The notes under the pieces: model-generated | The model's input: only the letters and a program-made list of their open reading frames with translations | Told to the model about the DNA's origin: nothing | The model's database searches: none | Assembly (NCBI GenBank): GCA_030018275.1 | Contig: JASEGB010000003.1 | Span: 9,600-73,599, forward strand | Origin: Actinomycetota bacterium | GTDB lineage: Bacteria; Actinomycetota; Aquicultoria; Subteraquimicrobiales; Subteraquimicrobiaceae | Length of the DNA stretch: 64,000 nucleotides | Reading direction: 5' to 3' | In this document: in pieces, positions 34,921 through 54,906 of the stretch | How positions within the stretch are numbered: position 1 is the stretch's first letter | How the letters are laid out: each line of letters starts with the position of its first letter | Program-made: the position numbers and the translations under genes

Positions 34921-34950
34921 GGTAACCAATGTCTGCGATTAATACATGTA
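34921..34950. repeat. REP-like module B copy
   Basis: ggtaaccaatgtctgcgattaatacat. Confidence 0.55.
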
Positions 34951-34979
34951 GGTTCTAAGTTAAGGTTAAAGGTGAAAGT

Positions 34980-36074: not shown

Positions 36075-36140
36075 TGGGTTAAAGGTTAAAGGTTGATGGG
36101 AACCCAATAACCCAATAACCCAAATTATCCCAAATAAGGG
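36075..36140. repeat. paired tandem arrays (GGTTAAA)x2 + (CCCAATAA)x3
   Basis: gggttaaaggttaaaggttgatggg aacccaataacccaataacccaaattatccc. GGGTTA is complementary to TAACCC. Confidence 0.6.
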
Positions 36141-36149
36141 GGGAATGTT

Positions 36150-37064: not shown

Positions 37065-37115
37065 TTGAAGGAATAAGGCTTGCGCCTTAGTTCCTTTGAA
37101 GTAAGTGTGATTAAA

Positions 37116-38699: not shown

Positions 38700-38713
38700 G
38701 GTGAACAGAGAGA

Positions 38714-39517
38714 ATGAAATTGGTGCGATTTCTGCATGGTCATAGGGTGCGTTTTGGAATTCTTGAGCGTGGTGTGATTCGATCCATCTTTGGTACCGCT
38801 TTTGAAGTTTGCTCGTCAAAGAGTGGCTGTGAACAGGATCCAAAATTTACTGGTGAGGAGTATTCTATTGAGGAAGTTAAAATACTTGCCCCAGTGGAGC
38901 CATCCAAGGTAGTCGCGGTGGGATTAAACTATGTCGACCATGCCAAAGAACTTAATATGCCTTTACCGGACGAACCCATCCTCTTTTTGAAACCCTCGAC
39001 TTCGGTCATCGGTCCCGAGGAGGATATAATTTATCCCCTAATGTCAAAACGCGTGGATTACGAAGCTGAACTGGCTGTGGTTATTGGGGGCAAAGTGAGA
39101 TATCTATCTCCGGAGGAAGCTCCCGAGCATATTCTCGGTTTTTGCTGCTCTAATGATGTTACCGCCCGAGACTTGCAGAGCAAAGATGTACAGTGGACGA
39201 GAGCGAAAAGTTTTGACACTTTTACCCCCATTGGTCCCTGGATTGTTACGGATTTAGATCCGAGTGACCTCCGCATCGAATTACTGCTCAATGGCAAAGT
39301 GAGACAATCTTCCTCCACTTCGAAGATGATTTTCGATGTCAATCATTTGGTCAGTTTTATTTCCCAGATTATGACCCTTCTTCCAGGCGATGTAATCATG
39401 ACCGGTACCCCTCCAGGTGTTGGCTCCATGAAGGTTGGAGATGTCGTCGAAGTCCGCATCGAAGGAATCGGAGTTTTAAGAAATCTCATTGCCACCCAAG
39501 TGTCCGACACTAAATAA
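38714..39517 (+). CDS. fumarylacetoacetate hydrolase (FAH) family protein
   Basis: FAH-fold motifs (DYEAELAVVIG, GTPPGVG). Confidence 0.65.
   Translation: MKLVRFLHGHRVRFGILERGVIRSIFGTAFEVCSSKSGCEQDPKFTGEEYSIEEVKILAPVEPSKVVAVGLNYVDHAKELNMPLPDEPILFLKPSTSVIGPEEDIIYPLMSKRVDYEAELAVVIGGKVRYLSPEEAPEHILGFCCSNDVTARDLQSKDVQWTRAKSFDTFTPIGPWIVTDLDPSDLRIELLLNGKVRQSSSTSKMIFDVNHLVSFISQIMTLLPGDVIMTGTPPGVGSMKVGDVVEVRIEGIGVLRNLIATQVSDTK
39500..39514. repeat. 15-bp palindrome-containing repeat GTGTCCGACACTAAA (left copy, inside the FAH 3' end)
   Basis: An identical sequence, apart from the central base of the 11-nt palindrome, occurs at 39963-39977; the two flank the transposase remnant. Confidence 0.6.
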
Positions 39518-39622
39518 GCCTTTTACCTGGCACAATGAAAAAATAACTGCATATTTGGTTGGCTTTGAAATATTGTTGAAATATAATTCATAAATTAATA
39601 ACTATCTAAGGAAAAGGTTATT

Positions 39623-39929
39623 ATGCCCAGACCTCCACGAGAAATTGTTCCGGGTGGCATCTATCACATAACCACCAGGGGAAATAACCGACAAGATATA
39701 TTTCTCGACAAAGAAGACAGACAAACTTACTTAAGTTTCTAGTTATCTCTCATACATAGATTGCAAATCAGATGAGCTTCTTGACCATAAGGAGATCTTG
39801 AGCCTGTTCGGGAAGAAGGATTCCACTCAGAGGAGAAAATATCGGCAGTTTGTTGAAGATGGAATTGCCCTTTGGAAATTGTATGTACCAAGGAAGTTCA
39901 ACGAAAATCAGTTCAGTAAAATGTGGTGA
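39623..39929 (+). pseudogene. IS200/IS605-family (RAYT-like, COG1943) tyrosine-transposase remnant with an internal deletion
   Basis: N-terminal MPRPPREIVPGGIYHITTRGNNRQDIFLDKEDRQTYLSF* (39623-39742). The family C-terminal tail DELLDHKEILSLFGKKDSTQRRKYRQFVEDGIA... (39771-39929) is in another frame. The catalytic HuH/Tyr core is missing. Confidence 0.55.
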
Positions 39930-39962
39930 GGGCAGCGAAAGTGCTGGTGAAATATTTGCGAG

Positions 39963-39977
39963 GTGTCGGACACTAAA
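39963..39977. repeat. 15-bp repeat GTGTCGGACACTAAA (right copy)
   Basis: Partner of 39500-39514. Confidence 0.6.
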
Positions 39978-39988
39978 AGGGAGCGCTC

Positions 39989-40207
39989 ATGAACACGGCC
40001 AAATTGGAGAGATTTAAACCGTTCTTGTTAATTCTTCTAATTTTACTTTTATTTCCTTCGACGGTCTATGCGGATAAAGGCATGATCCCTCTTTCTGATG
40101 TCTCTCCTTATGAACCCGGTCAAAAAGCGATCCTTGCATGCAATGGTGAGGAAGAAGTGCTCATCCTCTCAACGGATGTTTCCGCCAGCAAACATTCTTT
40201 ATTTTAG
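39989..40207 (+). CDS. small secreted protein (signal peptide); possibly the N-terminal part of a split gene
   Basis: MNTAKLERFKPFLLILLILLLFPSTVYA signal-like N-terminus. Confidence 0.3.
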   Translation: MNTAKLERFKPFLLILLILLLFPSTVYADKGMIPLSDVSPYEPGQKAILACNGEEEVLILSTDVSASKHSLF

Positions 40208-40269
40208 AAGTCTTACTTCTACCTTCAAAACCGGAAATTAAGGAGGGAACCATTAAATCCTTTGAGAGG

Positions 40270-41031
40270 ATGGAGAAATTGATCGGCGAGCGAATGAAAG
40301 ATGTCTATGGACTACGGGGGTTGAAAGAAGGGGCTCCGGGTGTAGAAATAATCTTCCACAAGAGGATAGGAGCCCATGACCTCACCGTGGTCAAGGTGAG
40401 AAGTTATCAAGAATTTTTGAAATGGATTGCTGATTTTCTCAAAGATAAGAAGATCAAACACGAGGTTGATTCACCGAGGTTGCGCGAATTAATCTCAATA
40501 TATTTGGAGCAGGGACTAAATTTCTTTGTCTTTGACCTCATAACGGTTGATCCGGAGCCACGGAGTATAAAGCCCTTAATATACAAATTTAAGAGCGACT
40601 CTCTTTATTATCCATTGGAGATTTCCTCCCTTGCTTCGGGCAATACTAGACTCTCGCTGTTCATCATCACCAAAGATAAATTAGACTCTTCGTCCCTTGA
40701 GAAAGTTCGATTGTATCCCGGTCTAACCCCTCCCTTTCGCGTGGGGGAAGACGAGCTCAGAAAGATCAGTCCAGAGGTCTCCCGGTTGTTTAATGGTTAT
40801 GCTTGGCTTACTCCTGCCCATTACATCGGTCCGATTCAATTTTTGAGCGGAGATTTGCAGATACCCATAAAATCGAGGATTGAAGATAGGGGCATTGAGC
40901 GGTTGATGCCTATAGTCTTGGCGATTTTCGTGGCGATGTTTAGCTGTATTTTAGCTTGCCTTCTTATTTTGCTGAGGTTACAAAGAAGAATTGTTGAACT
41001 GGAGGAAAAGCTTCGGAAAGGAAATCAGTGA
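40270..41031 (+). CDS. hypothetical protein with a C-terminal TM anchor
   Basis: 253 aa with a C-terminal hydrophobic helix (LMPIVLAIFVAMFSCILACLLILL); overlaps the next gene's start. Confidence 0.4.
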   Translation: MEKLIGERMKDVYGLRGLKEGAPGVEIIFHKRIGAHDLTVVKVRSYQEFLKWIADFLKDKKIKHEVDSPRLRELISIYLEQGLNFFVFDLITVDPEPRSIKPLIYKFKSDSLYYPLEISSLASGNTRLSLFIITKDKLDSSSLEKVRLYPGLTPPFRVGEDELRKISPEVSRLFNGYAWLTPAHYIGPIQFLSGDLQIPIKSRIEDRGIERLMPIVLAIFVAMFSCILACLLILLRLQRRIVELEEKLRKGNQ

Positions 41032-41507
41032 TGGAATATCTTTTCAGACCGTGGAGGATGAAATATATCATGAGCGAGAAAGCCAAAGGTTGCATCTTTT
41101 GTGATAAACCTAAGGAAAACAGGGATAAAGAGAACTACATCCTTTACAGGGCTAAAACCTGCTTCATTATGCTAAATATCTATCCCTACAACAGTGGTCA
41201 TCTTATGATCGCTCCCTACAAGCACATTCCGGATTTGGAAGGACTGGAGGATCACGAGCTCTCAGAGTTGATGCTGGTCACAAGGAAGAGCATCCAAATC
41301 CTCACCAAGGCGATAAAGCCCGATGGGTTCAATATCGGCATGAATCTGGGAAGAGTGGCGGGTGCAGGTGTAGAGGAGCACATCCACATTCATATGGTCC
41401 CAAGATGGAACGGGGACACGAATTTCATGCCTACGATTGGGGATACCAAAATCATCCCCGAACTCCTGGATGCCACATACGAAAAACTCAAACAAGCCTT
41501 AAAATAA
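41028..41507 (+). CDS. HIT-family hydrolase
   Basis: Histidine triad HIHIHMVPR. Confidence 0.65.
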   Translation: MMEYLFRPWRMKYIMSEKAKGCIFCDKPKENRDKENYILYRAKTCFIMLNIYPYNSGHLMIAPYKHIPDLEGLEDHELSELMLVTRKSIQILTKAIKPDGFNIGMNLGRVAGAGVEEHIHIHMVPRWNGDTNFMPTIGDTKIIPELLDATYEKLKQALK

Positions 41508-41728
41508 GCCACCTCCACAATCTTCAGGTGGACATGCTCGTTTTCCATCGATGCATGTTGAGTAATTGATATTTTTATTTCGATGAAGGATCTTTTCCAA
41601 TTTTACTCTATGGTCCCAATTATCGTGTGTAATCGATAAGCAGGGGATAAACAAAATTGTGATTATTAAAATGTTGACAATCATGTACATTTAGGGTGTA
41701 CTTTAAGATGTGACAAAGGAGTGGTCTC

Positions 41729-42025
41729 ATGAGTAAAATTATAGGGGTTACCGAAGCTCGCTCAAAATTAAGGAAGATTCTCGATGAGATTTCGAAAAAA
41801 AGAGAGCCTTACATATTAACGAGGGGAAGCAAACCCGAGGCAGTTATAATTCCATATGAGGAGTATCTGGCAATTGAGGAGCGAACAAAAAAACTCTGGA
41901 ATGAGCGTTTTGAGCTAGCTCTTAGGAAGTCTCGCGCGCTCTTTAACGAGTGGTTGCGCAAGAAGGGTTACGATCCAGAAAAGCTGACAGAGGAAGAGGT
42001 AGAAAGGATAATTCGAAGTGCCTGA
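41729..42025 (+). CDS. type II antitoxin, Phd/YefM family
   Basis: MSKIIGVTEARSKLRKILDEI...PEAVIIPYEEY pattern; 98 aa. Confidence 0.7.
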   Translation: MSKIIGVTEARSKLRKILDEISKKREPYILTRGSKPEAVIIPYEEYLAIEERTKKLWNERFELALRKSRALFNEWLRKKGYDPEKLTEEEVERIIRSA

Positions 42026-42428
42026 GGAGCCGCGGGTTGTCCTCGACACTAACGTTTTTGTCTCCGGCATTCTCTTTGGTGGATTATCGGGTGAGATTAT
42101 TGAATTGTGGCGGGAAGGGGCTTTCAATCTCATCATCTCTCCTGAAACTTTGGCTGAGCTCATTGGAAAGCTAAAGTTTAAATTTGGCCTGCCCAGTGAA
42201 CTTGCCAATGAGTGGCAAGATCTTTTAAGCGAGCGTAGTATCCCCGTTATCCCCGAATACACCACTAAAATCTGTCGCGATCCCGAGGACGATAAGTTCA
42301 TCGACGTGGCTTTGGCAGCTAAGGCTGATTACTTGGTTACAGGAGATAAGGACTTGCTCGTGCTTAAAAACTATCGCGGGGTGAAGATTTTAAAGCCAAA
42401 AGAATTCCTGGCGTTGATGAGAAAATAG
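42018..42428 (+). CDS. PIN-domain toxin (VapC-like)
   Basis: VVLDTNVF N-terminus with acidic PIN residues; 8-nt overlap with the antitoxin. Confidence 0.7.
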   Translation: MPEEPRVVLDTNVFVSGILFGGLSGEIIELWREGAFNLIISPETLAELIGKLKFKFGLPSELANEWQDLLSERSIPVIPEYTTKICRDPEDDKFIDVALAAKADYLVTGDKDLLVLKNYRGVKILKPKEFLALMRK

Positions 42429-42456
42429 ACCATCTGAGCATTTCGTCTTCTTTTTT

Positions 42457-42620
42457 TATGCTGTTAACCATCCACCATCAACAACTACTGTATGTCCCGT
42501 GATGTATTCGCTCTCATCACTTGCTAAAAAGGCGACTGCGTTTGCAATATCATTGGGTTTATATTCACAAAGCCCCCTTTGTCGCACAATAGATATTTTA
42601 CAAGGAGGGCGTTTAATTAT
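42457..42620 (-). pseudogene. short-chain dehydrogenase/reductase (SDR) C-terminal fragment
   Basis: The minus strand encodes ...[34 protein letters not shown], a canonical SDR C-terminus; the upstream part of the gene is absent. Confidence 0.5.
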
Positions 42621-42635
42621 GGCATCATTAGTGAG

Positions 42636-42797
42636 CTAGGAATCATCTGCATGGCTTGGCTTTTTGAAGTTCATATATAAAACATCAGCCTCTTTATCGT
42701 ATGCTGTCCAAATCCTTGAATATGGGACTTTCAATAACTCAGGCACAATCCATATTCTCTCAATTCCTCTTGCAAATATTAAGATTGCTCATAGGCA
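42636..42797 (-). pseudogene. DUF2283-like small protein fragment
   Basis: The minus strand encodes ...IWTAYDKEADVLYMNFKKPSHADDS*, resembling the DUF2283 N-terminal motif, with no ATG start. Confidence 0.3.
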
Positions 42798-42819
42798 TGA
42801 CGCCACGATAGGCAAAATG

Positions 42820-42910
42820 GAGCGCCAGCGAGATTTTGCCTAACGTGTTGAGCGTATCTGAAGTCCAGCCATTAGGCTGGAGTTAGGCGAAGGTGTGAAG
42901 CATCGTAGCC
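42820..42910. repeat. island intergenic repeat R1 (GTTAGGCGA / GGCGAAG motifs)
   Basis: ttgcctaacg, gagttaggcgaagg and ctgttaggcgacgtggcgaa are shared with 47461-47560, 48495-48620 and 51885-51920. Confidence 0.5.
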
Positions 42911-42922
42911 AAATACGCTCTG

Positions 42923-43441
42923 TTAGGCGACGTGGCGAATTATTTCAAGAATATCTTTTACAAGGTTAGGTAATATCATCTTTAGTGTCGAAGATAATTC
43001 CATAGAGGGAAATAGATTCGCCGGTTGAATGGCGAAGATTATGACCGTTTCTGGGCATTCACCTAATTTATTGGAGAGCTCAATCATATTTAATAAATCG
43101 TATTCGTGAGTGGACTGCCCTGAACTTCGTTTGATAGATTTTATATTTTCTGGACTAAAACATCGTTTTTCACCTGGCGAGCCCCCAAAATCTACAGCAT
43201 CAACTATTATTGCAGCATCAAGTTCAGTTAGAGCATGAAGTAAATTCAGACTACTCATTCCTATATCAATAATAAAAACATTTTCAGGCAGGGTTTCATT
43301 CTTCAGTAGTGCCAATACAGCAATACCTACACCATCATCACCCATGAGGCTATTCCCTACTCCAATTATACCTATCCTCTTTGGTTTCTTTGACCTCGAC
43401 CTCGAAAGGGAATCACTGCTGCTACTTACAGCTACTTTCAT
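42923..43441 (-). CDS. hydrogenase maturation endopeptidase (HycI/HyaD family)
   Basis: IGIIGVGNSLMGDDGVGIAV motif; its ATG overlaps the large-subunit stop (ATGA). Confidence 0.65.
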   Translation of the reverse strand: MKVAVSSSSDSLSRSRSKKPKRIGIIGVGNSLMGDDGVGIAVLALLKNETLPENVFIIDIGMSSLNLLHALTELDAAIIVDAVDFGGSPGEKRCFSPENIKSIKRSSGQSTHEYDLLNMIELSNKLGECPETVIIFAIQPANLFPSMELSSTLKMILPNLVKDILEIIRHVA

Positions 43442-44733
43442 ACAAATCGTACCTGTAAATAATGGGTAGAACACGATATGCAAGGATCATATGCCCTAAC
43501 AAGCATCTCCAATTTATGTTCAATTTCATTTCTAGGTTGATCCAGAAGAGTCGGGGCAAAGGCTTCCATATCTTTTTGTATATTTTCGTGATTTTGATTA
43601 GTCGGTATAATATAATTGGCATTGATGCATTTACCATGTTCGTCGAAGGTATAATCGTGAAATAGTATACCACGGGGAGCTTCAACCACACCTATACCGC
43701 GACCAGCCTTTACTACTATTTCCACTTTTTCTTCTTCTAATCCATTATCAAGCAGCCTTTCAATGATGCAAATAGACTCTTCCAAAGAATGGACAACCTC
43801 TACTAATTGTGCGACATTATTCATGAATGGATTAAAACACGGTACCTTCAAACCAAATCTTTCAGCGACTTCTTTTGCTAAAGCCGTCAACCTTGAACTG
43901 CTAAGGTTACATCTTGCTAAAGCACCAACCATATACGAATCTCTATCGTGCTTTGTATGTTTTGCAGTAGAATGCGGCACCACAAATTCGTTTGTGATCG
44001 ATAGGTAATCCACGAGTTCGTGTTTTCCTGTATCTGTAGAGCCTATCATACCATCGTACAAGGCGTACTCCTCGTCTGATATTAAACCAATATACTCGGT
44101 TTCACGGCTGAAGTCGGGTAATTTATCAACATTAGCCGATACAAACCCAGCGACATCCAATGCTGTTTCAATTGCATTCACGAGTCTTGCTTTGAAATCT
44201 ATTAATTCCTTCTCCTCTGGTAGCTTTGTAAAACCGCCGACAATGAAACAGATAGGATGTGTTGTCCTTCCACAAATTAAATCCGATAATTCATTTCCAA
44301 GACGATGAATGTTAATAATTTTGACCACCGCTTCCTTGTGTATCTCAATAAGTGGGAACACACTTCCAACACCAAATAGGTCCGGTGCTACGAGATATCC
44401 AACATGAAGGATATGACTTTGTATATTCTCGGCATGTTTAGTTAATTTTCTGAGAAGCAACGTTTGGTTTGAAATATTAACGCCCATCGCATTTTCTGTA
44501 GCTTTCAGAGACGCCAATGCGTGAGATATTGAACATATTCCGCAGATTCGAGATGCAATGTGAGAAAGCTCACTATAATCCCTCCCAACCATCATTGCTT
44601 CAAAAAAACGAGGGGCTTCTGGGACTTGCCACTGAACAGACAGGAGCTTTCCGTTCTTTGCATCCAGAACAATGTTTCCATGCCCCTCTACCCGCGTGAT
44701 ATGTTCTAATCGAATTTTCAGTTCTTGACTCAT
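43438..44733 (-). CDS. [NiFe] hydrogenase large (alpha) subunit, group 3b sulfhydrogenase type
   Basis: N-terminal RICGICSISH and C-terminal DPCISCSTH Ni-Fe ligand motifs. Confidence 0.8.
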   Translation of the reverse strand: MSQELKIRLEHITRVEGHGNIVLDAKNGKLLSVQWQVPEAPRFFEAMMVGRDYSELSHIASRICGICSISHALASLKATENAMGVNISNQTLLLRKLTKHAENIQSHILHVGYLVAPDLFGVGSVFPLIEIHKEAVVKIINIHRLGNELSDLICGRTTHPICFIVGGFTKLPEEKELIDFKARLVNAIETALDVAGFVSANVDKLPDFSRETEYIGLISDEEYALYDGMIGSTDTGKHELVDYLSITNEFVVPHSTAKHTKHDRDSYMVGALARCNLSSSRLTALAKEVAERFGLKVPCFNPFMNNVAQLVEVVHSLEESICIIERLLDNGLEEEKVEIVVKAGRGIGVVEAPRGILFHDYTFDEHGKCINANYIIPTNQNHENIQKDMEAFAPTLLDQPRNEIEHKLEMLVRAYDPCISCSTHYLQVRFV

Positions 44734-45476
44734 TTGGATATCACCCCCTTATAGCAAAATAGTTCAAACCGATTTAGCGCATCCTCTACCGTGAGACCAT
44801 ATTTTTGCAGGATCTCTAGTTCGGAATCTAAGTTGGGATCTGCCACCAGCCCCCTGCAACCTTTACACTCGTTCCTGTTTGTTGGGCAGATTGCATCGCA
44901 ACCTGCTCGAGTCACAGGTCCAAGACAGAACTTTCCTTCCTCAAATACACAGATATTTTCGCGCTTTTTGCATTCAACACATACAGGATAATTTGGGATT
45001 TCGGGCTTTTTTCCTAGAGCGAGTGAGGTTATAACTTTTGCAAGTTCATCTCTATTTATCGGGCAGCCTGGAACATAATAATCAACTTTAACTACATCAT
45101 CAACTGATTTCGTTGGGAATACATCAAAGTATGGGTTATTCTTTAGATCTGCACCACCATACACCTTCTTCACTTCATTTATTGGAAAACGATTCCTCAA
45201 TGCATTTATGCCACCGATACAGGCACACGCACCCAGCGGTACGAGGATATTTGCACGGCTACGAATTACTTTCAATCGTTCTTCATCTATGGGTCTGGCA
45301 ATAGAGCCTTCGATAAATGCTATATCATAATCATCTGAATGTTCTTTCATAGCTTCTCTAAACGAAACCACATCAACGATGTCGATTAAATCAATTACCG
45401 ATTCTTCAAGATTTATTACCTGAAGTTGACAGCCTTCACAAGATGCGAAATCAAAAAATGCAACCTTCGGTTTCAT
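44730..45476 (-). CDS. [NiFe] hydrogenase small (delta) subunit
   Basis: FASCEGCQLQ proximal-cluster motif. Confidence 0.7.
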   Translation of the reverse strand: MKPKVAFFDFASCEGCQLQVINLEESVIDLIDIVDVVSFREAMKEHSDDYDIAFIEGSIARPIDEERLKVIRSRANILVPLGACACIGGINALRNRFPINEVKKVYGGADLKNNPYFDVFPTKSVDDVVKVDYYVPGCPINRDELAKVITSLALGKKPEIPNYPVCVECKKRENICVFEEGKFCLGPVTRAGCDAICPTNRNECKGCRGLVADPNLDSELEILQKYGLTVEDALNRFELFCYKGVISK

Positions 45477-46306
45477 TATAATGCCTCCTGTAAATCTTTA
45501 ATCTCAGTATAATTGAACACAGGTCCGTCCTGACATACATAAATACCATTAATCTGACAATGCCCACACTTACCAACACCACATTTCATCCTGCGTTCAA
45601 GCGAAAGTATAATATGGTCATCTGGTAAGTCTCTCTCCTTAAGTGATTTTATGACGAATTTGTACATAATTGGTGGACCACAAACTACTGCATAAGTTGT
45701 ATTAATGTCAAAATCAACTTTTGGAATAAGCGTTGTTATAACTCCTACATTGTAATTCCAATGTTCCCCCTCAGGAACTGCATCAACTGTTAAATGGAGT
45801 TCAGTATCTTTTCGTTGGCCCCAGGCTGTAACCTCATTAGTAAAAAGGAGTTCATGGGGTGCCTTACAACCGTATAAGATCGTTACTTTCCTATAATCCG
45901 CTCTATGCTCGAAGACGTAATTAATTAAGGACCGTAAGGGCACAATTCCAAGCCCACCACATATAAACAAAATATCTTTGTCTTTCAAAAACTCTGTATC
46001 AAAACCAATTCCAAACGGCCCTCTAATACCTACTTTGTCGCCTTTTTTCAGTCTATGCATTGCATTAGTAACATTTCCTACCCTACGCACACAAAGTTCG
46101 AATGTTTGGCTTTGGGTAGGTGACGATGAGACAGATATCGGTGCTTCTCCAATACCCATAATAGAGACTTCTACAAATTGACCAGGTTTATGGCCTAGCG
46201 GGTTTCCATCATCAAGCGTGATTTCAAAGAGATTTTCTAACTCCGTAAATCTATTGATATTTTTTATTGTTGCCGCCCTTGGTAGATATATTGAGTCATT
46301 ATTCAT
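45476..46306 (-). CDS. sulfhydrogenase gamma subunit (FAD/NAD(P)-binding, [2Fe-2S])
   Basis: Ferredoxin-NADP-reductase-like fold with CGVGKCGHCQ. Confidence 0.65.
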   Translation of the reverse strand: MNNDSIYLPRAATIKNINRFTELENLFEITLDDGNPLGHKPGQFVEVSIMGIGEAPISVSSSPTQSQTFELCVRRVGNVTNAMHRLKKGDKVGIRGPFGIGFDTEFLKDKDILFICGGLGIVPLRSLINYVFEHRADYRKVTILYGCKAPHELLFTNEVTAWGQRKDTELHLTVDAVPEGEHWNYNVGVITTLIPKVDFDINTTYAVVCGPPIMYKFVIKSLKERDLPDDHIILSLERRMKCGVGKCGHCQINGIYVCQDGPVFNYTEIKDLQEAL

Positions 46307-47394: not shown

Positions 47395-47460
47395 TGTTAT
47401 CTACTCCTTTTATTTTAATTTTTTTGAATCCCTACCATATCTCTCTTTAGCCGTCGAATG

Positions 47461-47560
47461 ATTGATAGCGCCATGTCGCCTAACGTTTTGCGGATAAAAG
47501 AAGTTTTTGCGAAGCGAAAATTTGGGTAAAGGCTAAAAGTCTGAACCTTTTATGCTGTGT
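47461..47560. repeat. island intergenic repeat R2
   Basis: gccatgtcgcctaacg...ggataaaagaagtttttgcgaagcg. Confidence 0.5.
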
Positions 47561-47592
47561 TATACGCCGTGCCGTATACCATATCTTCATAA

Positions 47593-48474
47593 CTATTCTT
47601 CCCCCGATATCTTTGAGATTCTATCAAATTCTTCTCTTAGTTTTTTATACGCTTCATCTAATTCTTCTGCTTTACCTTCCAAATTTTTAAAGTGAGTCCT
47701 ATAAAAAACTCGCCATATTTCATCGATCTCGCCAAATCGTTGTGAAAGCCTAACGAGATTTTTCCTCACTTTTTCTGCATCTTCGGAAAGTTTCTTTGCA
47801 TAAGCACCCGCCTTTATAAGTTCGATTTTATGTGAAAGGGTCAGTGGCGATACTACTTGGACTCCATTTTTTGTATAATCTCGTAGCATTTCGAATGCTT
47901 CATTTACTAAGAAATAGTAAACTCCTTCAGAAGGAATATAAGCAAAAGCAAACTCAGCGGATCCCTTTTCTGGACAAACGTAATCATCGGCAATCTTATT
48001 GAGGTGACCTTGGACATCTCTAAGGAATCGTTTTTTGAATTCTTCTCTTTCGTTGGTTTCTTCTATATTTAACATCTTTCCAAAATTATCCAAAGGAAAC
48101 TTAGAGTCTATGCAAATAATCCCCACCGTTGATCTTATGTTCGCATCTGGAGTCTTTCCATCAAGAGTTCTCTCTCTAATACCATACATATCTTTTGGAA
48201 GTTGGTCTGAAAGTATCGTCTCCAGAGAGAGCTCTCCAAAAGATGCCCTTTCTGTTGGTACTCGAAGCATCTGTTCAAAAGATTTGTAACTGTCTCTAAT
48301 ATCCTTAGCATGGCTTTCCACTGCACCTATTTTTTCATCTAATCCCAGCTTTATCCAACTTCTTGATACAGCAGTTTCAATATCCTTCGGCTCAACTCTT
48401 TTACTTCGTAAAATCAAGAATATCAATGCAAACAGAAGCACAACGATAATTATAAGCAAGATTTCCATTATCAT
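47593..48474 (-). CDS. RmuC-domain protein (short form; N-terminal TM, coiled coil, nuclease-like RmuC domain)
   Basis: PDANIRSTVGIICIDSKFPLDNF and FAFAYIPSEGVYY blocks match RmuC conserved regions. Confidence 0.55.
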   Translation of the reverse strand: MIMEILLIIIVVLLFALIFLILRSKRVEPKDIETAVSRSWIKLGLDEKIGAVESHAKDIRDSYKSFEQMLRVPTERASFGELSLETILSDQLPKDMYGIRERTLDGKTPDANIRSTVGIICIDSKFPLDNFGKMLNIEETNEREEFKKRFLRDVQGHLNKIADDYVCPEKGSAEFAFAYIPSEGVYYFLVNEAFEMLRDYTKNGVQVVSPLTLSHKIELIKAGAYAKKLSEDAEKVRKNLVRLSQRFGEIDEIWRVFYRTHFKNLEGKAEELDEAYKKLREEFDRISKISGEE

Positions 48475-48494
48475 ATCACCTACGTTATTATTTT

Positions 48495-48620
48495 AAGCAT
48501 GGCGTATAACCTTTTGGGGATAAAAGAAGTTGCCAAAGGCATTTGGGCGAAGCGTAGCGAAGCCTTTTATCCGCTGTTAGGCGACCCGAAGGGCGAGCCA
48601 CGATAGTGGCGAAGCGTATC
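48495..48620. repeat. island intergenic repeat R3
   Basis: ggataaaagaagtt, three gcgaagcg copies, ctgttaggcgac and gtatcccgcagcc (the reverse complement of ggctgcgggatac at 51888). Confidence 0.5.
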
Positions 48621-48652
48621 CCGCAGCCACCCCTACATCTCTCTCACCATTG

Positions 48653-50077
48653 TTATCCCGCAGCAATTTCTTTTAATCTTCTTTCAAGCATTTTTATTGC
48701 TTTATCTTCAATTTGGTTGGATTTGTCTCTTTTGTCGTATGCTTCAAAAACAAAATTGCCGATTTTATCTCGTATGTCTTTTGGCGGTACTATGATATTT
48801 ATGTCTTCTAAAAGACTTGTATCTCGCTCTCCAATTTCATCTACCACAGCTCCATAGATTTTTCCCTTAATTTGATATTCCCCATAAGGAGAACTTAAGA
48901 AGGCTGCAATATACCCAGAATGTATTTCTGGTTTTATTATAATCCTCAACACATGTTCACTTGCTGCCCAATCTTCCCAACCACTTCTTACAACTCCTAT
49001 TCTTCCAACCGTGCCAGAACGAGTCATTAGAACCCAATCTTTTTTTATCAATATATTTTTGAGATTTCTAGTTCCACTCCAAAGATATTTAACATCCATG
49101 GGTTTTATCTGTGGAATGTGAGAACCTTGTAAGAATGCGACACCTGAACTCGGGTCATCAACATAAGGGCGTTTAAAGCGGGTTGGGATGAATATTTTAT
49201 CTATCACTTCCCTAAATTTCATATCTTCAAATTCTGATTTTGAGAGGTTTTCTTCGATTTGTTGTAAAATCGGTATATGAGACGATGCATCCAACCGCAA
49301 ATTTAAATCACTTGCCTTAAGTTCAAAGCTTTTAACAATTTTCCCCTTATCTCCTTCAAAATACTCAACATTATCTTCATCTATTTTAGGCAAGCCCAAT
49401 TCTGAATATATCATCTCTTCGGCTTTCAAAAGAAGTTCCTGGGCTTCTTCCCTTAATCGGTGGGCTTTTAAAATTTTTTGGTTTATCTCTTCTTCTAATC
49501 CAGGGATGCGAGGGACTGGTATATCGTAAAGATGATGTGGCAAAATGTGGTCAACCGTAATACCAAATTTAGGAGATTTAATAAGTGCTGAGCCAATCCA
49601 AGTTGATAAGAAAGCGTATAGATAACCTCTTATTTTTTCATCAGTGATTACTCTTATCGGATTCGGAGAAATGATAAACTGCTCCAAATATTTTGTTGCT
49701 ATTGTTACTCTTCCAATAGTGCCTGACTGAGAGATGAGCAAATAGCCATTTTTAACCCGCCATTTGTCAGGTTCTGTTAGCTTTCTTATGTCAACTTTTT
49801 TCCTTGCCTTAGGCAAAAAGAATTCTACCTCGGATTGCGTCAAATATGGCTCACCATAATCTGAAAATGGAATGGTTATTTTTAAAGCAGGCATGTAAAT
49901 GTTTTCAACACCAACTAAACCTGAAAGTTTTACAATTTCAGTTTTTTGCGACGCTTTTTCTAAAATTAGTCGTGCAGCAATCACATCTTGAGAGTAAAAG
50001 GAGGCATTTAATCTAAACTCTCCTTCAGCTACCCAGTGGCTTGGCACCTCAACTGTTTGGATTACTGCATCCATCAT
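48653..50077 (-). CDS. hsdS: restriction-modification specificity subunit (HsdS-like, two target-recognition domains)
   Basis: 474 aa with two repeated TRD halves separated by conserved coiled-coil spacers. Confidence 0.7.
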   Translation of the reverse strand: MMDAVIQTVEVPSHWVAEGEFRLNASFYSQDVIAARLILEKASQKTEIVKLSGLVGVENIYMPALKITIPFSDYGEPYLTQSEVEFFLPKARKKVDIRKLTEPDKWRVKNGYLLISQSGTIGRVTIATKYLEQFIISPNPIRVITDEKIRGYLYAFLSTWIGSALIKSPKFGITVDHILPHHLYDIPVPRIPGLEEEINQKILKAHRLREEAQELLLKAEEMIYSELGLPKIDEDNVEYFEGDKGKIVKSFELKASDLNLRLDASSHIPILQQIEENLSKSEFEDMKFREVIDKIFIPTRFKRPYVDDPSSGVAFLQGSHIPQIKPMDVKYLWSGTRNLKNILIKKDWVLMTRSGTVGRIGVVRSGWEDWAASEHVLRIIIKPEIHSGYIAAFLSSPYGEYQIKGKIYGAVVDEIGERDTSLLEDINIIVPPKDIRDKIGNFVFEAYDKRDKSNQIEDKAIKMLERRLKEIAAG

Positions 50078-51873
50078 ACCATTCCCTTCCTTCTAATCCA
50101 TTCTTTAAACATCTCAGCCACCAGGGGAATATGGTCATCAATTGCAGGTTGTCCGTTTGCAGCCAATTCTATTTCTCCTTCTGGCGTGGTCTTGAATACC
50201 GGATTTCCCCTTCGGTCATGTCCCACTTTCTCTGGTATTGCCATGAAAATATCGTAATCCTCTTTTAGTTTTTCTTGTTCTGATGTCTTCTTTTTTAAGA
50301 TGAGAATGCTTGTCTGTGTCCCCGTATGTGGCTCAAAAGTTTCTACTGGCAAATCAACACTTGCTATTATGTAAGTCTTTTTTAGAATCCACTCTCTGAT
50401 CCATATTAATCCAGGATTACTCAAGATGCTGTCAGGAAGAACAATACCCAAAATACCGCCGGGTTTTAGAAAATCTAAACATCGCTCAATAAATAATTGT
50501 TCTGGTGGAAGTGCAGTCCTTGGAGAACCTACCTTGAAAGTGGTTAACTCAAATTGGCTTAATATATCGGGATTGTCTATTACTGCTTTCGTTCCAAACG
50601 GCGGATTGGTTACAACTATATCAAACTCTTCTAAATGCACTTTTCTTTTAGCTTCATCATTCCAATTTGATAATTTTTCAAGAGAGTTAGCATGTACAAT
50701 ATTTGAAGAACCATCACCATGCATAACCATGTTCATTTGAGAGACTTTTACCAAGAACGGGTTAAACTCTATACCATAAAAGTTGGTGTTTACCACATCT
50801 CGAACTAAATCTCTTAATTGGTCGTATCTAAATCCTCGCTTTAAGAACATCTGTTTTATCTTTTGTACGCCTGCTATTAAAAATCCACCTGTCCCAACAG
50901 CTGGATCAAGGATTTTTAACGCTCCTGGACTTGTTAATTTCTCCTCAGGAAATAGTGAAAAGAGCATTTCTATTGCCATACTACAAACATTTCTTGCAGT
51001 GAAAAACTCCCCTCTATCTCCCCTCAAATTAGGACCTACTACTTCCTCGTAAGCTTCACCCTTTACATCTGTCTCAGTATCTACAAAGCTAAATCTCTGT
51101 AACTCTGAAACAATATAACTAAGCACCGAGTCATTTAGTTCAAGTGTCTCGTTCCCTTTAAAAATATATTTGTATCTTTCTTGCACCTTTTGAAAAACCT
51201 TTGTTAATCTATTTCTGACTTTTGAGATGTCTTCACCGGGCAAGATGTAGAATTGTAATGTTGGGTCGTATTGTTCATCATAAACCTTTATAAAAATCAA
51301 TTTTTGGAGTTCTTCAAAAGCCTTATCTTTCTGAAAACCTTGATTAACATATATGTAATTATGAACACGTTTGAACACTTGTTTTAGGTTTACAGCAGGA
51401 ACAAGTCGCCCACTTGTAGGTTTAGGGATAGTAGTTTCTCTTCTTTTAGGTACATCTGGGATCCGAGTTAAAACTCGTTTTCCCCTCTCCTCTACAACCG
51501 TAAACGCTAATCTTTCATTACCTACCCAGAGGGCAAATGCACTATTAGGAGATGCCGCAACATAGCTTCCAAGCTGCCCGACTCCTTCTTTTCTGTCTGA
51601 TGGCTTAACATCTTCGGTTTTTACTTCAGCAATTATGTAGATATTTTCTTGCGTATGTTCTCCATCTTCAGAAAAAATAACAATGTCTGCCCGCTTTTTC
51701 GCCCTTCCCATTTTTATAGGGAACTCAACATCAATATCACTTTTGTTATAGCCATACTCCTCAACAAGACTTCTGACTACATCTTGCCTTATTCTTTCCT
51801 CGGATGTATCTTTTCTTAGTTTCCCAGTAATGAAACACTTTATTTTTCCTGGTGGTATTACTTCTTCAGGCAT
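50074..51873 (-). CDS. N6-adenine DNA methyltransferase (HsdM-like) with N-terminal PD-(D/E)xK nuclease-like (HsdR_N-type) domain
   Basis: VVTNPPFG motif IV and AdoMet motif I (LDPAVGTGGF). The N-terminal 130 aa carry D...EVK (ADIVIFSED...IIAEVK). Overlaps the hsdS start. Confidence 0.7.
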   Translation of the reverse strand: MPEEVIPPGKIKCFITGKLRKDTSEERIRQDVVRSLVEEYGYNKSDIDVEFPIKMGRAKKRADIVIFSEDGEHTQENIYIIAEVKTEDVKPSDRKEGVGQLGSYVAASPNSAFALWVGNERLAFTVVEERGKRVLTRIPDVPKRRETTIPKPTSGRLVPAVNLKQVFKRVHNYIYVNQGFQKDKAFEELQKLIFIKVYDEQYDPTLQFYILPGEDISKVRNRLTKVFQKVQERYKYIFKGNETLELNDSVLSYIVSELQRFSFVDTETDVKGEAYEEVVGPNLRGDRGEFFTARNVCSMAIEMLFSLFPEEKLTSPGALKILDPAVGTGGFLIAGVQKIKQMFLKRGFRYDQLRDLVRDVVNTNFYGIEFNPFLVKVSQMNMVMHGDGSSNIVHANSLEKLSNWNDEAKRKVHLEEFDIVVTNPPFGTKAVIDNPDILSQFELTTFKVGSPRTALPPEQLFIERCLDFLKPGGILGIVLPDSILSNPGLIWIREWILKKTYIIASVDLPVETFEPHTGTQTSILILKKKTSEQEKLKEDYDIFMAIPEKVGHDRRGNPVFKTTPEGEIELAANGQPAIDDHIPLVAEMFKEWIRRKGMV

Positions 51874-51884
51874 ATTCTTACCTC

Positions 51885-51920
51885 CTTTTAAGGCTGCGGG
51901 ATATGTCGCCTAACTTAATA
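51885..51920. repeat. island intergenic repeat R4
   Basis: ggctgcgggatatgtcgcctaac. Confidence 0.5.
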
Positions 51921-52135
51921 TATACGAAATTCGCTTTATGTTCCCAAACTTTAGTATATACGAACTTCGTGTTATTCCCCAATATTGGTTATGCGCTTCA
52001 AATGATAATTCTTGCTATTACCTTCCCCTCAAGATTATATCTAAATGGACTTTTAATCTTTCCTAAATCTAGTAAACCAGTGGTATCAACCGCCATTTCG
52101 TTTTCCTCGTGTAGGTCTGGTATTCCTCGCCAAAC

Positions 52136-52510
52136 TCAGTAACCAGCATTTTTTCTTCGTGTTGAATGCGCCATAGAGAAATGGCACCGGGGAATCGGTC
52201 CGACAAAATGGGCATATTCCCATGGCGGCATAAAGGTAAGGAGGGGCACGGTCACAAGCCCGAAGGCTATAACCATCACGCGTTGACTCCGGTCATAGGC
52301 CGACGGTGTACCGATTTGCCGCCCCAGTGCAGTCACCAGCCACCATACTACCCACAAAACCAGGTAAGCCACTTCCACTGGTCGGTGGAGGAAGGTTATT
52401 CCCCCGCCAGCCACGATAATAATCACACAGGAAGCCGCTATGAAGATAAATCGTCCGATAAGCATCTTGGTCACTTTCAAGCTTCCGACAAATAGGTTAA
52501 TCAAACTCAC
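52136..52510 (-). CDS. hypothetical membrane protein (possibly a C-terminal piece of the adjacent split antiporter)
   Basis: 124 aa, hydrophobic; overlaps the end of the upstream fragment by 14 nt. Confidence 0.25.
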   Translation of the reverse strand: MSLINLFVGSLKVTKMLIGRFIFIAASCVIIIVAGGGITFLHRPVEVAYLVLWVVWWLVTALGRQIGTPSAYDRSQRVMVIAFGLVTVPLLTFMPPWEYAHFVGPIPRCHFSMAHSTRRKNAGY

Positions 52511-53668
52511 TTTGATTGGGAGTGATATCTCCTTTAATCATCATTCTATTGAAGATCCATTTTACCAGTATTGGGGAGCTTAACGAGGTAACTACCGACA
52601 TCACCACCACTGCGTTAAAAATGCCCACCGGAATGATTCCCATTTCTCTCCCCACGACGGTTGCTGTTAAGGTGACCGCCAGTTGAGGTAAGGTCATGAA
52701 GCCCAGTGCAAGCGAGCGATGGATTCCGTAGTTAAAAGTTCTTCCACTTAGCAAACCTGCTGCAATTTTTGCTAGGATTAGTCCCAAAACGATGGACGAT
52801 GTTGTGACCAGAGACTGGGCTTTGCTTATCAGGATGGTTAAATTTGCATTCATCCCCACCACTATTAGAAATATGGGTATGAAAAATCCCCGTCCAAAGA
52901 AGTACACTTCCCTAAGGGCTGGTCATCGGCATGATACTTTAAACCTGCGGATAATGCTATTCCGGCTAGAAAGGCTCCAACTGCGGCATGAATCTTGATT
53001 ATCTCGGCCAAAACTGCTGTGATTAGTAAAATCAAGATGATGAAGTGAAAATCCGAACGTTTGGCGCGATCAAGTTCAAAGAACTTCTTAGCTAATCGAG
53101 GTACTCCTCCCAAGATAACCAGCACAAAAATGACGAATAAAATCCCCAATTGAATGAATTCAGGGCCTACCGCCCTCCCAGCTTTTGCTGCTACTATGAG
53201 TGCCAATATAAGCAGCGCAGCAGTATCTGTTAATACTGTTCCCAGGAAAGCTATGGAAACAACTTCCTCGTTCATCAGTCCACGGTCCTTTAATAAGGGA
53301 TACGTGATGATGGTGTGAGAGGATAAGATTGAACCAAGAATGATGCTACCCAAGAGGTCTAAGTGAAAGTACCTTCCGATCGAAAATCCTACGATGAACG
53401 GAATCGTGAATGTGAATATCCCAAAAGTTACTGCCCTTAAGCCGATTTTTCTGATACGTTCTGTTGGGATATCCAATCCGGCCAGAAATAGCATGTATAT
53501 GAGCCCGATTGAGGCTAAGGCTTGTACGCTCTCACCCAAAGGGAGGATTCTAAAACCATGGGGTCCGACCAGTATCCCCGCAATCATGAAGGCTGTTTCC
53601 AGTGGGATTCTCGTCCGATTAAGTACACTGGAGACGATCAAAATGATGGTGATTAGAACCATAAACAC
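52497..53668 (-). pseudogene. cation:proton antiporter (CPA1/CPA2, Na+/H+ exchanger family), frameshifted
   Basis: Exchanger N-terminus (MFMVLITIILIVS...GLDI) at 53668-52865 continues in another frame at 52907-52497 (YFFGRGFFIPIFLIVVGMNANL...). The frame switch is near 52900-52915, where the downstream frame has a TGA. Confidence 0.55.
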
Positions 53669-53815
53669 GAAGAATATGCTCCACCGTTACTTCACCTTTT
53701 GTTGAAGTCTTGTCTAATTTTAGAATAGAAATTTCGGAATTAGAATAAAAATTTCTTGACAGTTATTTGAGCAAGTGTATACTTCTAAATATATACTATG
53801 GGAGAATTATAGGAG

Positions 53816-54061
53816 ATGGGTTTGATGGAGGTAAAGGCAAAAGAGCTCAGAACACGGACTTCTTCTATTATAAAAGCTGTTAAAAGCGGTGAAGAGGTTA
53901 CGATAACCTATCGCGGCAAACGGGTTGGGGTAATTAAACCTCTTTTAGGCAAGAGGAAAACCTTTAATCCAGTTGGCTTTGGTCTTTGGTTAGGACGGGA
54001 AGATTTAAAAGACGTCGAGACATGGATCCGAGAAAAGAGAGCAGCTCGATACGGAAAGTAA
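53816..54061 (+). CDS. type II antitoxin (Phd/YefM-like)
   Basis: MGLMEVKAKELRTRTSSIIKAVKSGEEVTITYRGKRVGVIKPL pattern. Confidence 0.55.
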   Translation: MGLMEVKAKELRTRTSSIIKAVKSGEEVTITYRGKRVGVIKPLLGKRKTFNPVGFGLWLGREDLKDVETWIREKRAARYGK

Positions 54062-54453
54062 TATTCGATACAGACATTCTCATTTGGTATTTTCAGGGGG
54101 ACGAGAGCGCCAAAGCTTTTTTGGCTAATTTTCCATTTCGGTCAAGGACGGTTTCTTCTCTAACTCTGATGGAATTAATTCAAGGTGCACTTAGCAAGGC
54201 TGAGCTGAGAACCATCAAAAAATTCATTGAAGAAAATTTTAGCGAGGTTTTTCACCCAAATGAGGCAGTTTCAAGGCGAGCAATTATTTTGCTGGAGAGA
54301 TATGCTTTATCCCATGGTTTAACCACAGTGGACGCTCTTCTTGCAGCAACTGTCCTTGTTTTCAAAAGCAAGCTTGCGACAGCCAACGCAAAGCACTTTC
54401 GTTTCATAAAGGGGTTAGAGGTTATTCCTTTCGTGCCAGCTTCTTTTGGCTAA
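54022..54453 (+). CDS. PIN-domain toxin (VapC family)
   Basis: IFDTDILIWYF N-terminus typical of VapC; overlaps the antitoxin 3' end. The start is uncertain (54022 or downstream). Confidence 0.6.
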   Translation: MDPRKESSSIRKVIFDTDILIWYFQGDESAKAFLANFPFRSRTVSSLTLMELIQGALSKAELRTIKKFIEENFSEVFHPNEAVSRRAIILLERYALSHGLTTVDALLAATVLVFKSKLATANAKHFRFIKGLEVIPFVPASFG

Positions 54454-54639
54454 CTTCCTCTCTAGCACTTAATGCGCTCAAGCAGCTAATAGCGCTCCTC
54501 TTGAGGATTAGCATTTTGTGTCCGAAAATAATTCTCATTTTCTCCCCAAAATCTTGTTAGCGAACAAGTGTTCTGATATATTAAAAGATACATGATTGCA
54601 AAGGTTTGAAATTTAACCTGTATTATTGACAAGATGGGT

Positions 54640-54830
54640 TAACACCATGGTCGGGGTGAAGTGCTCCGAAAACACCCCGAAGAACGCTGTCGCGTCTACG
54701 GGGCAGGCGCAGTTAAGGCCGTTTACCCCATTGGCGAGTGAAACGAGTCCTTCGGGGTCGCTCGGTCTCGCCTCGCTACAGAAGTGTGAATCTGTTCAGA
54801 AGTTTTCATAGGCGAGGCTCCGACACTTTC
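54640..54830 (+). other. GC-rich structured segment in the dnaE 5' region (possible leader or small RNA)
   Basis: Follows TTGACA at 54627. Contains GGGGTG/CACCCC and GCCTCGC/GCGAGGC stems and a CC-UUCG-GG tetraloop hairpin. Confidence 0.15.
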
Positions 54831-54906
54831 TTAAGCACTTACCCCCTTAAATGTATGTGTAAACCAAACTCGCTAATAGTCCATTTAACCTCATAGGAGT
54901 GGAACT

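Follow-up and report, generated by a model that had tools for sequence, protein, structure and literature searches.

A complete [NiFe]-hydrogenase operon in a putative integron-type cassette array of an Actinomycetota genome

How a complete five-gene [NiFe]-hydrogenase operon came to lie in an AT-rich block of an actinobacterial genome is the question raised by the locus analyzed here. The locus belongs to a 64,000-nt stretch of contig JASEGB010000003.1 (assembly GCA_030018275.1), hereafter the window, in which glycogen, ilv and leu genes lie to the left of the block and dnaE and his genes to its right. The FAH gene of the left flank (38714-39517) encodes a protein 92% identical to that of Candidatus Subteraquimicrobium carltonvillense UBA2594 (Actinomycetota, class Ca. 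Aquicultoria). An initial annotation had proposed that positions 39500-54500 form a single accessory island, bracketed by toxin-antitoxin pairs and carrying the hydrogenase together with restriction-modification (RM) genes. As an observation this was largely right, with boundaries drawn too wide, and is partly confirmed; as an interpretation it is partly supported, an array of three integron-type cassettes, located at a junction element that is conserved, taking the place of the single bracketed island. We consider it probable that positions 42844-51913 consist of three integron-type cassettes with no integrase nearby, resembling a cluster of attC sites that has no integron integrase (CALIN), in a variable slot between the HIT gene and an antiporter operon.

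Sites and boundaries of the three putative cassettes

Four repeats, R1-R4, had been listed by the initial annotation as a private family; they are present, but had not been recognised as recombination sites. R1, R2 and R3 are imperfect palindromes of 85-97 nt with ends of the form RYYYAAC...GTTRRRY, as in the inverse core and core of integron sites; in the window these ends read GCCTAAC or GTATAAC with GTTAGGC or GTTATAC. In each site, R'' (RYNYAAC) and a spacer of 1 nt precede the 11-bp L stem; a variable loop and L' come next, and a spacer of 5 nt separates L' from R' (GTTA...). All are oriented on the minus strand, and were scored with a profile built from 89 metagenome sites, which was used on the metagenome contigs listed below and on the window. 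R1 (42838..42931), the attC-like site of the hydrogenase cassette, is found with E = 6e-7 and is predicted to form a hairpin of -25 kcal/mol (z = -4.7). R2 (47475..47568; R'' GGCGTATAAC, R' GTTAGGCGAC; E = 4e-13) and R3 (48501..48585; E = 6e-20), which are both chimeric, are the attC-like sites of the RmuC and RM cassettes, respectively. A relaxed search (E up to 50) of the 39-55 kb region and of sister-lineage assembly L002 returned no sites beyond R1-R3, and the profile found no further attC-like site in the interior of the hydrogenase cassette. Rfam, which holds no attC family, gave nothing for R1-R4, a T-box being its only match in the window.

When the repeats are read on the gene strand, the order is R4 (..TTAAG|TTAGGCGAC) followed by the RM genes M and S, R3 (GTCGCCTAAC..G|TTATACGCC) followed by the RmuC-family gene, R2 (GGCGTATAAC..G|TTAGGCGAC) followed by hydBGDA-hycI, and finally R1 (GTCGCCTAAC..G|TTAGGCAAAATC). 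After each G|TT comes an arm that perfectly complements, over 10 nt, R'' of the next downstream site and not R'' of its own site. Cassette boundaries lie at G|TT, and they delimit three units on the minus strand. The hydrogenase cassette (42844..47483; 4640 nt) comprises a 90-nt leader, hydB, hydG, hydD, hydA, hycI and its own site R1; its first nine bases, TTAGGCGAC, together with the preceding G, complement its own R'' end GTCGCCTAAC at 10/10 positions. The RmuC cassette (47484..48509; 1026 nt) has the perfectly complementary ends TTATACGCC and GGCGTATAAC, and in the RM cassette (48510..51913; 3404 nt), which carries M, S and its own site R3, TTAGGCGAC and GTCGCCTAAC are complementary. Each cassette 5′ end thus pairs 10/10 with R'' of its own site and has no complementarity to the site that it abuts. 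The sites are chimeric in the manner expected from successive attC x att recombination; integron arrays are built in exactly this way, as their crossover point is located between G and TT (PMC4889954).

Predicted folds agree with this. As they stand in the array, R2 (z = -0.06) and R3 (z = -0.8) fold no better than shuffled sequences; rebuilt as they would be in circular cassettes, R2, R3 and R1 reach z = -3.5, -3.3 and -4.8, respectively (-21.8 kcal/mol for R1), and in all three the strand opposite to the genes folds more stably. All eight cassette genes are co-oriented with the sites, and scans of the block for promoters and terminators gave counts not above the shuffled expectation. A Logan contig of 4645 nt corresponds to window positions 42841-47485. 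It both starts and ends at CGTTA, which would hint at alternative junctions but was not counted as evidence for them, as the repeated site family in that metagenome also explains such ends.

The fourth repeat, R4 (51905..51990, minus strand), is an AT-rich junction element 79% conserved in the sister lineage, and conserved also in genomes that have no cassettes. It holds two direct repeats, CGAANTTCGTATATANTAA, located upstream of the GTT at which the genomes diverge. R4 may be attI-like, may serve as a secondary site of integration or may represent an attC that has degenerated.

The site family is not confined to the window. A degenerate 22-nt pattern (L', spacer and R') was found on at least 120 metagenome contigs, and in 101 of the 122 matches listed the complementary L'' arm lies upstream; viral contigs gave no match to the pattern. 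Among the listed contigs the profile finds 179 sites, and many contigs have two to four sites on the same strand, 0.6-2 kb apart. The longest open reading frame (ORF) is on the strand of the site in 46 of 47 inter-site segments, in most of which over 80% of the length is filled, and the median metagenome cassette measures ~0.9 kb, the hydrogenase cassette being among the largest. The GC content of these contigs (0.381 +/- 0.046) fits the window cassettes and not the window backbone. On many metagenome contigs of low GC, the same site family thus occurs in ordinary arrays of single-gene cassettes.

End swapping recurs in these arrays. The seven variable bases after GTT of one site match R'' of the following site at 5.77 of 7 positions on average, perfectly so in 16 of 35 metagenome cassettes, as compared with 3.88 of 7 for R'' of the own site and 3.82 of 7 for random pairs. 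The 11-bp L stem is paired at 85% when aligned in register versus 39-56% when shifted, and compensatory pair types occur at 8 of its 11 positions (for instance GCGGATAAAAG/CTTTTATCCGC, GAGCGTATCTG/CAGATACGCTC and GCGGACATACG/CGTATGTCCGC). AAC and GTT are invariant in the 129 unique sites, where R'' is [G/A][T/C][A/C/T]TAAC and R' is GTTA[T/G/A][A/G/C][C/T], with inner positions looser than in the textbook consensus. Core ends, chimerism at G|TT, paired arms and same-strand arrays of ORF plus site are features of attC sites that are found in this family.

Two further observations were made on the family. Contigs L154, L147 and similar ones join the L'' arm of one subtype (GAGCGTATCTG) to the L' arm of another (CTTTTATCCGC), which suggests exchange inside the loop besides that at G|TT. 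A conserved module of ~50 nt (..CTCTGCGG, a hairpin, then CTTGCCCTTCGGGTC) is located directly upstream of R'' at R3 (window 48586-48640) and, likewise, upstream of R'' in a subset of metagenome sites (e.g., L105, L123, L129 and L186).

The slot in related genomes

The AT-rich block exists but is narrower than proposed: GC content is 0.355-0.42 in 43-52 kb and 0.43-0.51 elsewhere in the window. GC content at third codon positions (GC3) is 0.28-0.34 in the eight genes of 43-52 kb and 0.508 +/- 0.048 (minimum 0.383) in 36 backbone ORFs, without overlap (Mann-Whitney p = 1e-5). Low GC3 is limited to the three cassettes, the GC content of which is 0.366-0.389 (0.389 in the hydrogenase cassette) versus 0.463 in the backbone.

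For the analysis of synteny we used a sister lineage represented by three independent assemblies (L002/L209, L207 and L208) with 93-95% nucleotide identity to the window. Its gene order is leuA, FAH, Y1 transposase, DUF2330, HIT, a split S-adenosylmethionine (SAM)-methyltransferase, a small ORF, antiporter, Phd, PIN, dnaE and hisD, so that FAH is not directly followed by dnaE in relatives, as the initial annotation had suggested checking; an IS200-like gene, DUF2330, HIT, the antiporter and a Phd-PIN pair lie between them. The sister lineage lacks window positions 41508 to ~51910 (10.4 kb) and has in their place ~0.9 kb with a small methyltransferase gene. On the left, the two sequences diverge exactly at the HIT stop codon; on the right, at GTTA inside R4, directly after ...TATATTAAGTTA. 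The three cassettes are foreign in composition and absent from the sister lineage. The gene found there instead (L002 13552-14385; L207 10547-11458) is a class I SAM-methyltransferase with an in-frame TAA in its D-A-x-x-L-P-F-E-D region, the stop codon being present in all three sister assemblies.

An outgroup metagenome-assembled genome (MAG), L211, is ~90-91% identical to both lineages and has the slot filled by other genes and an IS5-like transposase. Its first ~85 nt after HIT are shared with the sister lineage and not with the window, so that the state of the slot in the window is the derived one. The hydrogenase and RM genes had been described as accessory and foreign, and this holds, given their deviant composition and a slot devoid of them both in the sister lineage and in the outgroup. 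Presence or absence among relatives and deviant composition together mark an accessory, horizontally acquired segment at 41508-51913 only.

A second MAG, GCA_030019535.1 (L082), is 99.9% identical over window positions 33293-39732 and 98.6% identical over 39879-47915. It has the same left junction and the same hydrogenase cassette, the HIT-Phd-PIN-debris-R1-hyd-R2-RmuC junctions being shared. Up to 39.7 kb the two differ at 0.06% of positions, and from 39.9 kb rightwards at ~1.4%; mismatches number 58 in the hydrogenase cassette, 15 over 432 nt of RmuC and 19 in DUF2330. The whole neighbourhood, and not just the cassettes, therefore appears to be recombination-prone.

These comparisons bear directly on the proposal of a classical ~15-kb island (39.5-54.5 kb), obtained in one acquisition with the RM genes, with two Phd-VapC pairs stabilising and bracketing it, in which the repeats would be incidental. 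That proposal can draw on the low GC, the toxin-antitoxin genes, the debris of pseudogenes and the remnant of a transposase, all of which are present, and on the rise in divergence from L082 that starts at 39.9 kb. However, in the sister lineage the transposase gene, DUF2330, HIT, the antiporter and the right-hand Phd-PIN pair are in place at ~95% identity, and the difference is confined to 41.5-51.9 kb. The segments 39.5-41.5 and 52.2-54.6 kb are backbone-like in composition and syntenic, so that the proposed span was too wide and the AT-rich foreign part reduces to 42.8-51.9 kb. The right-hand pair belongs to the conserved backbone, and the two pairs do not bracket an island; the transposase remnant, correctly seen, is likewise a backbone gene and not the left edge. 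Low GC3 restricted to three cassettes, and repeats that mark off three units with integron-type chimeric ends, speak for three separately delimited, attC-bounded cassettes instead of joint acquisition of the hydrogenase with the RM genes. Synteny, as it appears from these assemblies, already contradicts the single island, which we regard as improbable.

Somewhat less probable still is that the ancestor already had the hydrogenase at this position and that the sister lineages lost it, the palindromes being terminator-like elements or resembling repetitive extragenic palindromic (REP) elements that had spread between genes, with no role in gene movement. Group 3b hydrogenases do vary in presence across related actinobacterial clades (PMC7325909), the block is common to two assemblies, and no recombinase was found. 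Against this, GC3 is 0.30 as compared with 0.51, the closest homologues of the hydrogenase are only 76-79% identical and lie on low-GC, partly archaeal contigs, the outgroup agrees after HIT with the lineage that has no block, and neither end swapping nor single-ORF arrays are properties of REP elements. That a foreign low-GC fragment was joined to an actinobacterial contig at repeated sequences during assembly or binning is very improbable: the window is probably derived from a MAG and the site family, repeated in metagenomes, does break Logan contigs at the sites, but the independent assembly GCA_030019535.1 has the same junctions from HIT to RmuC, and the right junction falls exactly at the GTT core of R4, an element conserved beside the antiporter operon in the sister lineage.

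We propose, then, that an integron-integrase-type tyrosine recombinase, either lost or encoded at another locus, would have inserted circular cassettes successively, the insertion point being the GTT of R4. The array would be transcribed by read-through from the upstream antiporter operon on the minus strand, and the excised hydrogenase circle is predicted to have the junction ...CTCAACACG|TTAGGCGACATGG. One cassette would deliver all four subunits (alpha, delta, beta and gamma) of a cytosolic, NAD(P)-coupled [NiFe]-hydrogenase of group 3b along with its C-terminal-processing protease; provided that the genome has hyp maturation genes at another locus, the host would be able to use the enzyme for exchange between H2 and NAD(P)H. 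The other two would deliver an RmuC-family nuclease-like protein and a type IIB-like RM pair.

Several points weigh against an array of integron-type cassettes. Neither an integron integrase nor any other tyrosine recombinase was detected in the 64-kb window (motif scan; Pfam on ORFs of at least 150 aa), and the array is therefore at most CALIN-like and not a complete integron; no adjacent intI and attI were found, R4 being no more than a candidate insertion site. R4 itself goes undetected by the attC profile and is not a member of the site family. The canonical unpaired central spacer and extrahelical bases are lacking in the sites. Instead, spacers are asymmetric: the 5′ spacer is a single nucleotide (A in 118 of 129 sites) and the 3′ spacer has five (AAAAC in 93 of 129). 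The L stem has no bulged base in predicted folds, and the loop is branched with a conserved CCAAAT motif; the spacer asymmetry may serve the same strand-marking role. There is no distal site between R1 and HIT, where Phd-PIN and debris lie, nor at the methyltransferase gene of the sister lineage, so that cassette insertion alone leaves the replacement partly unexplained. Among the 120 listed contigs two recombinases were found, which corresponds to the chance expectation, and they have opposite orientations relative to the array. Cassette mobility, finally, is deduced computationally from sequence.

The two recombinases just mentioned, on L089 and L193, are the only ones obtained in a motif scan of all fetched loci and were considered as candidates for the cognate integrase. 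They were rejected as XerA-like: the integron-integrase model matches them only as two split pieces, below cut-off, and their homologues (74-94% identical) are Patescibacteria housekeeping Xer-like genes. All they show is that some hosts of the site family are Patescibacteria.

Beyond the integron-type reading of the window, a broader proposal can be put forward tentatively, and we give it considerably less credence. According to it, the sites would represent an unrecognised, environmentally widespread integron-like class, with asymmetric 1- and 5-nt spacers, a branched loop, the CCAAAT motif and a recombinase of its own, which would circulate in low-GC uncultivated lineages including Patescibacteria. 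Entire metabolic operons (in the present case the five genes of a [NiFe]-hydrogenase, the nearest relatives of which are in part archaeal) would be packaged in it and carried into phyla regarded as almost devoid of integrons.

Hydrogenase and restriction-modification cargo

All the genes named by the initial annotation were found in the window, including the complete [NiFe]-hydrogenase operon hydB-G-D-A plus hycI in the Pyrococcus gene order (42923-47394, minus strand). hydB (46303..47394, minus; 363 aa) encodes the beta subunit, a 4Fe-4S, AsrA-like protein with matches to Pfam Fer4_22 and, below the equivalog cut-offs, to NCBIfam sulfhyd_ShyB and HydB. The gamma subunit, with FAD/NAD(P)-binding and 2Fe-2S domains, corresponds to hydG (45476..46306, minus; 276 aa; Pfam NAD_binding_1, FAD_binding_6 and DHODB_Fe-S_bind; NCBIfam ShyC and HydG), and the delta (small) subunit to hydD (44730..45476, minus; 248 aa; Pfam Oxidored_q6; NCBIfam sulfhyd_HydD and ShyD). 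hydA (43438..44733, minus; 431 aa), encoding the [NiFe] large (alpha) subunit, has the RICGICSISH and DPCISCSTH motifs and an 8-aa tail. It is followed by a gene for a HycI-type maturation endopeptidase (42923..43441, minus; 172 aa; Pfam HycI, TIGR00072), the start of which is taken from the gene call on an identical contig, L001. No hyp genes are present in the 64-kb window.

The class proposed for the enzyme, group 3b, is supported by similarity ranking, as the best models and solved relatives are all of the sulfhydrogenase type. For hydA, the best solved relatives over the full length are the alpha subunit of P. furiosus sulfhydrogenase I (9nez, 9e15) and the T. kodakarensis enzyme 5yxy; Mvh, Frh and Hox rank lower. 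All four subunits match the Pyrococcus Hyd/Shy models best, with scores far below the NCBIfam equivalog cut-offs (295 vs 700 bits for alpha), which makes the hydrogenase a distant member of the group. Leaving aside the near-identical strain (97%), large-subunit identity is 76-79% in the closest homologues; of the homologue clusters, one includes a Ca. Altiarchaeales sequence and another lies on a contig with PGF-CTERM and KaiC-like genes.

Homologous operons have ~75% nucleotide identity across the operon and a GC content of 0.38-0.45, and are found at ordinary loci; no palindromic sites surround those of L084-L086 and L212-L214. Some of them carry promoter-like sequences of their own, while the window cassette has only its 90-nt leader. 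In the closest non-cassette operons, on L212 (1040-1110) and L213 (1650-1720), a promoter-like TTGACA...TATAAT is followed by the palindrome GTGAAAAATTTCAC, which may be an operator and is missing from the cassette version. Taking into account that group 3b enzymes are variably present in related clades, the enzyme is not new to this group of bacteria; the new aspect is how it arrived.

The cargo of the second cassette is a single gene for a 293-aa RmuC-family protein (47593-48474, minus; Pfam RmuC). In the third, M (50074-51873, minus; 599 aa) is a fusion of a PD-(D/E)xK domain (HSDR_N_2) and an N6-methyltransferase (Pfam N6_Mtase, HSDR_N_2), and S (48653-50077, minus; 474 aa) is a two-domain specificity subunit (Pfam Methylase_S). 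The best match in PDB is the type IIB enzyme RM.BsaXI, and the pair resembles, by domain content, a type IIB-like RM system. NCBIfam gives MAD2- and MAD5-like scores below cut-off (510 vs 720 and 331 vs 400 bits), and PADLOC assigns M and S to generic models for type I/II RM and MADS; with these scores and no other mad genes found by NCBIfam or PADLOC, the pair is not assigned to MADS. An exact sequence look-up of the M protein returned no record. On the attC-bearing contig L147 (5886-7121), a methyltransferase 37% identical to M lies in a 7.2-kb inter-site segment.

Known systems and neighbouring features

The array is most similar to integron cassettes and CALINs (PMC4889954, PMC9668308), with which it shares imperfect palindromes of 75-120 nt, AAC/GTT core ends, G|TT crossover leading to chimeric sites, and same-strand arrays of tightly packed promoterless ORFs, each with a site and with no integrase nearby. 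Integrase-less arrays are common, and RM and toxin-antitoxin cassettes, typical cargo of these systems, are well known (PMC4889954, PMC10661359). It differs from them in spacer geometry (1 nt and 5 nt), in the lack of bulged bases, in the CCAAAT loop motif and in the host phylum, Actinomycetota, in the complete genomes of which surveys have recorded just a few CALINs and not one complete integron. It differs also in having one cassette of 4640 nt with five genes, whereas most cassettes contain a single coding sequence, with a median of 0.36-0.58 kb, and those of at least 1.5 kb already count as very large (PMC5371416). What we regard as unusual here is that a metabolic operon of five genes and 4.6 kb makes up a single cassette, that the host is an actinobacterium and that the spacers are non-canonical. 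A text search of the literature gave no paper linking hydrogenase operons to integron cassettes.

The hydrogenase shares with group 3b enzymes (P. furiosus sulfhydrogenase I/II and the cytosolic T. kodakarensis enzyme; 9nez, 9e15, 5yxy) its four subunits, the hydB-G-D-A order and a HycI-type protease, the large subunit matching over the full length, with both CxxC motifs and the C-terminal tail; it differs in that the operon would be part of a mobile cassette and is preceded by just a 90-nt leader, unlike the closest relatives with promoter-like sequences of their own. Both the type IIB RM systems of the BsaXI/BcgI type and MAD2/MAD5 of MADS have, as do M and S, a nuclease-methyltransferase fusion and a separate two-domain specificity subunit; the sub-threshold scores and the absence of other MADS genes set the window pair apart from MAD2/MAD5. 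REP elements and bacterial interspersed mosaic elements (BIME) with REP-associated tyrosine transposases (RAYT) likewise involve short palindromes between genes, and the sister lineage has an IS200-like gene close by. They lack, however, gene-delimiting swapped complementary ends and ORF-plus-site arrays, and the heptamer-tract modules of this genome are another family than R1-R3, located elsewhere.

If the cassette reading is true, cassette systems can move multi-subunit enzymes as ready-made modules, which would be one possible route to the patchy distribution of group 3b hydrogenases. Integron cassettes are usually seen as single short genes, and a 4.6-kb energy-metabolism operon departs from that view. 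The customary limit for attC clustering is 4 kb (PMC9668308); R1 lies 4.6 kb from R2 and would therefore be dropped as a singleton, and standard screens would systematically overlook large cassettes. The site family offers a searchable handle for finding the recombinase and for gauging the frequency of operon-sized cassettes.

On the distal side of the array, the rest of the variable block (41508..42843, no single strand) is absent from L002/L207 and L211. It contains the left toxin-antitoxin pair, Phd (41729-42025, plus) and PIN (42018-42428, plus), an SDR C-terminal remnant (42456-42635, minus; adh_short_C2, E = 1.6e-10) and a weak DUF2283-like remnant (42636-42788, minus). As the latter matches part of the attC-bearing contig L107 at 86% identity, the debris beyond R1 may be what is left of older cassettes. 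Both Phd-PIN pairs were found by domain search where the initial annotation had placed them (41729-42428 and 53816-54453), and the SDR, DUF2283 and antiporter remnants that it had named are there as well; PADLOC had no match for the toxin-antitoxin pairs.

The backbone on the right (52136..54453, both strands), conserved and not part of an island, includes orf124 (minus), a split Na+/H+ antiporter gene (52497-53668, minus) and the right-hand Phd (53816-54061, plus) and PIN (53986-54453, plus), followed by dnaE as in L207 and L208, with which window positions 52187-54617 are collinear and 95% identical. The next segment, 54618-54905, forms 289 nt upstream of dnaE, where the sister lineage has 34 nt. 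The backbone on the left (39623..41507, plus), which is not part of an island either, has the same gene order in L002, L207, L208 and L211, where its genes are intact, at 91-95% identity. It comprises the IS200-like Y1 transposase remnant (39623-39742, plus), a disrupted DUF2330 gene (39989-40207 and 40270-41031, plus) and HIT (41028-41507, plus). The transposase, possibly RAYT-like, is degraded in the window and has an intact 204-aa copy at the same place in the sister lineage. Its decay is stepwise (window 39733-39878; L002 11366-11671), the window having a 306-nt deletion with respect to the sister lineage and L082 lacking a further 146 nt; the outgroup L211 has no IS200-like gene between FAH and DUF2330.

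Some elements were also noted elsewhere in the window. The T-box leader found by Rfam (22710-22961; 114 bits) lies upstream of ilvD. A 150-nt element occurs in two inverted copies, 97% identical (9308-9457 and 34744-34892), one of them in the leuD-leuB spacer; as RNA it is predicted to fold at -63 kcal/mol (z = -4.0), with no match in Rfam, and a copy ~85% identical is present in the sister lineage. The core-genome REP modules of the initial annotation are tandem-heptamer palindromic intergenic modules (GGTGAAT, GGTTAAA and GTGAACG types). A cyanobacterial origin, considered because of the heptamers, was rejected given that the relatives belong to Ca. Aquicultoria. The absence of the modules from the block, to which the initial annotation had drawn attention, is real but uninformative, as 10-24 kb and 55-64 kb are devoid of them as well; they are found only in the left 36 kb, at 4865-4912, 9203-9285, 24817-24888, 29600-29659, 34663-34691, 34922-34962 and 36066-36130.

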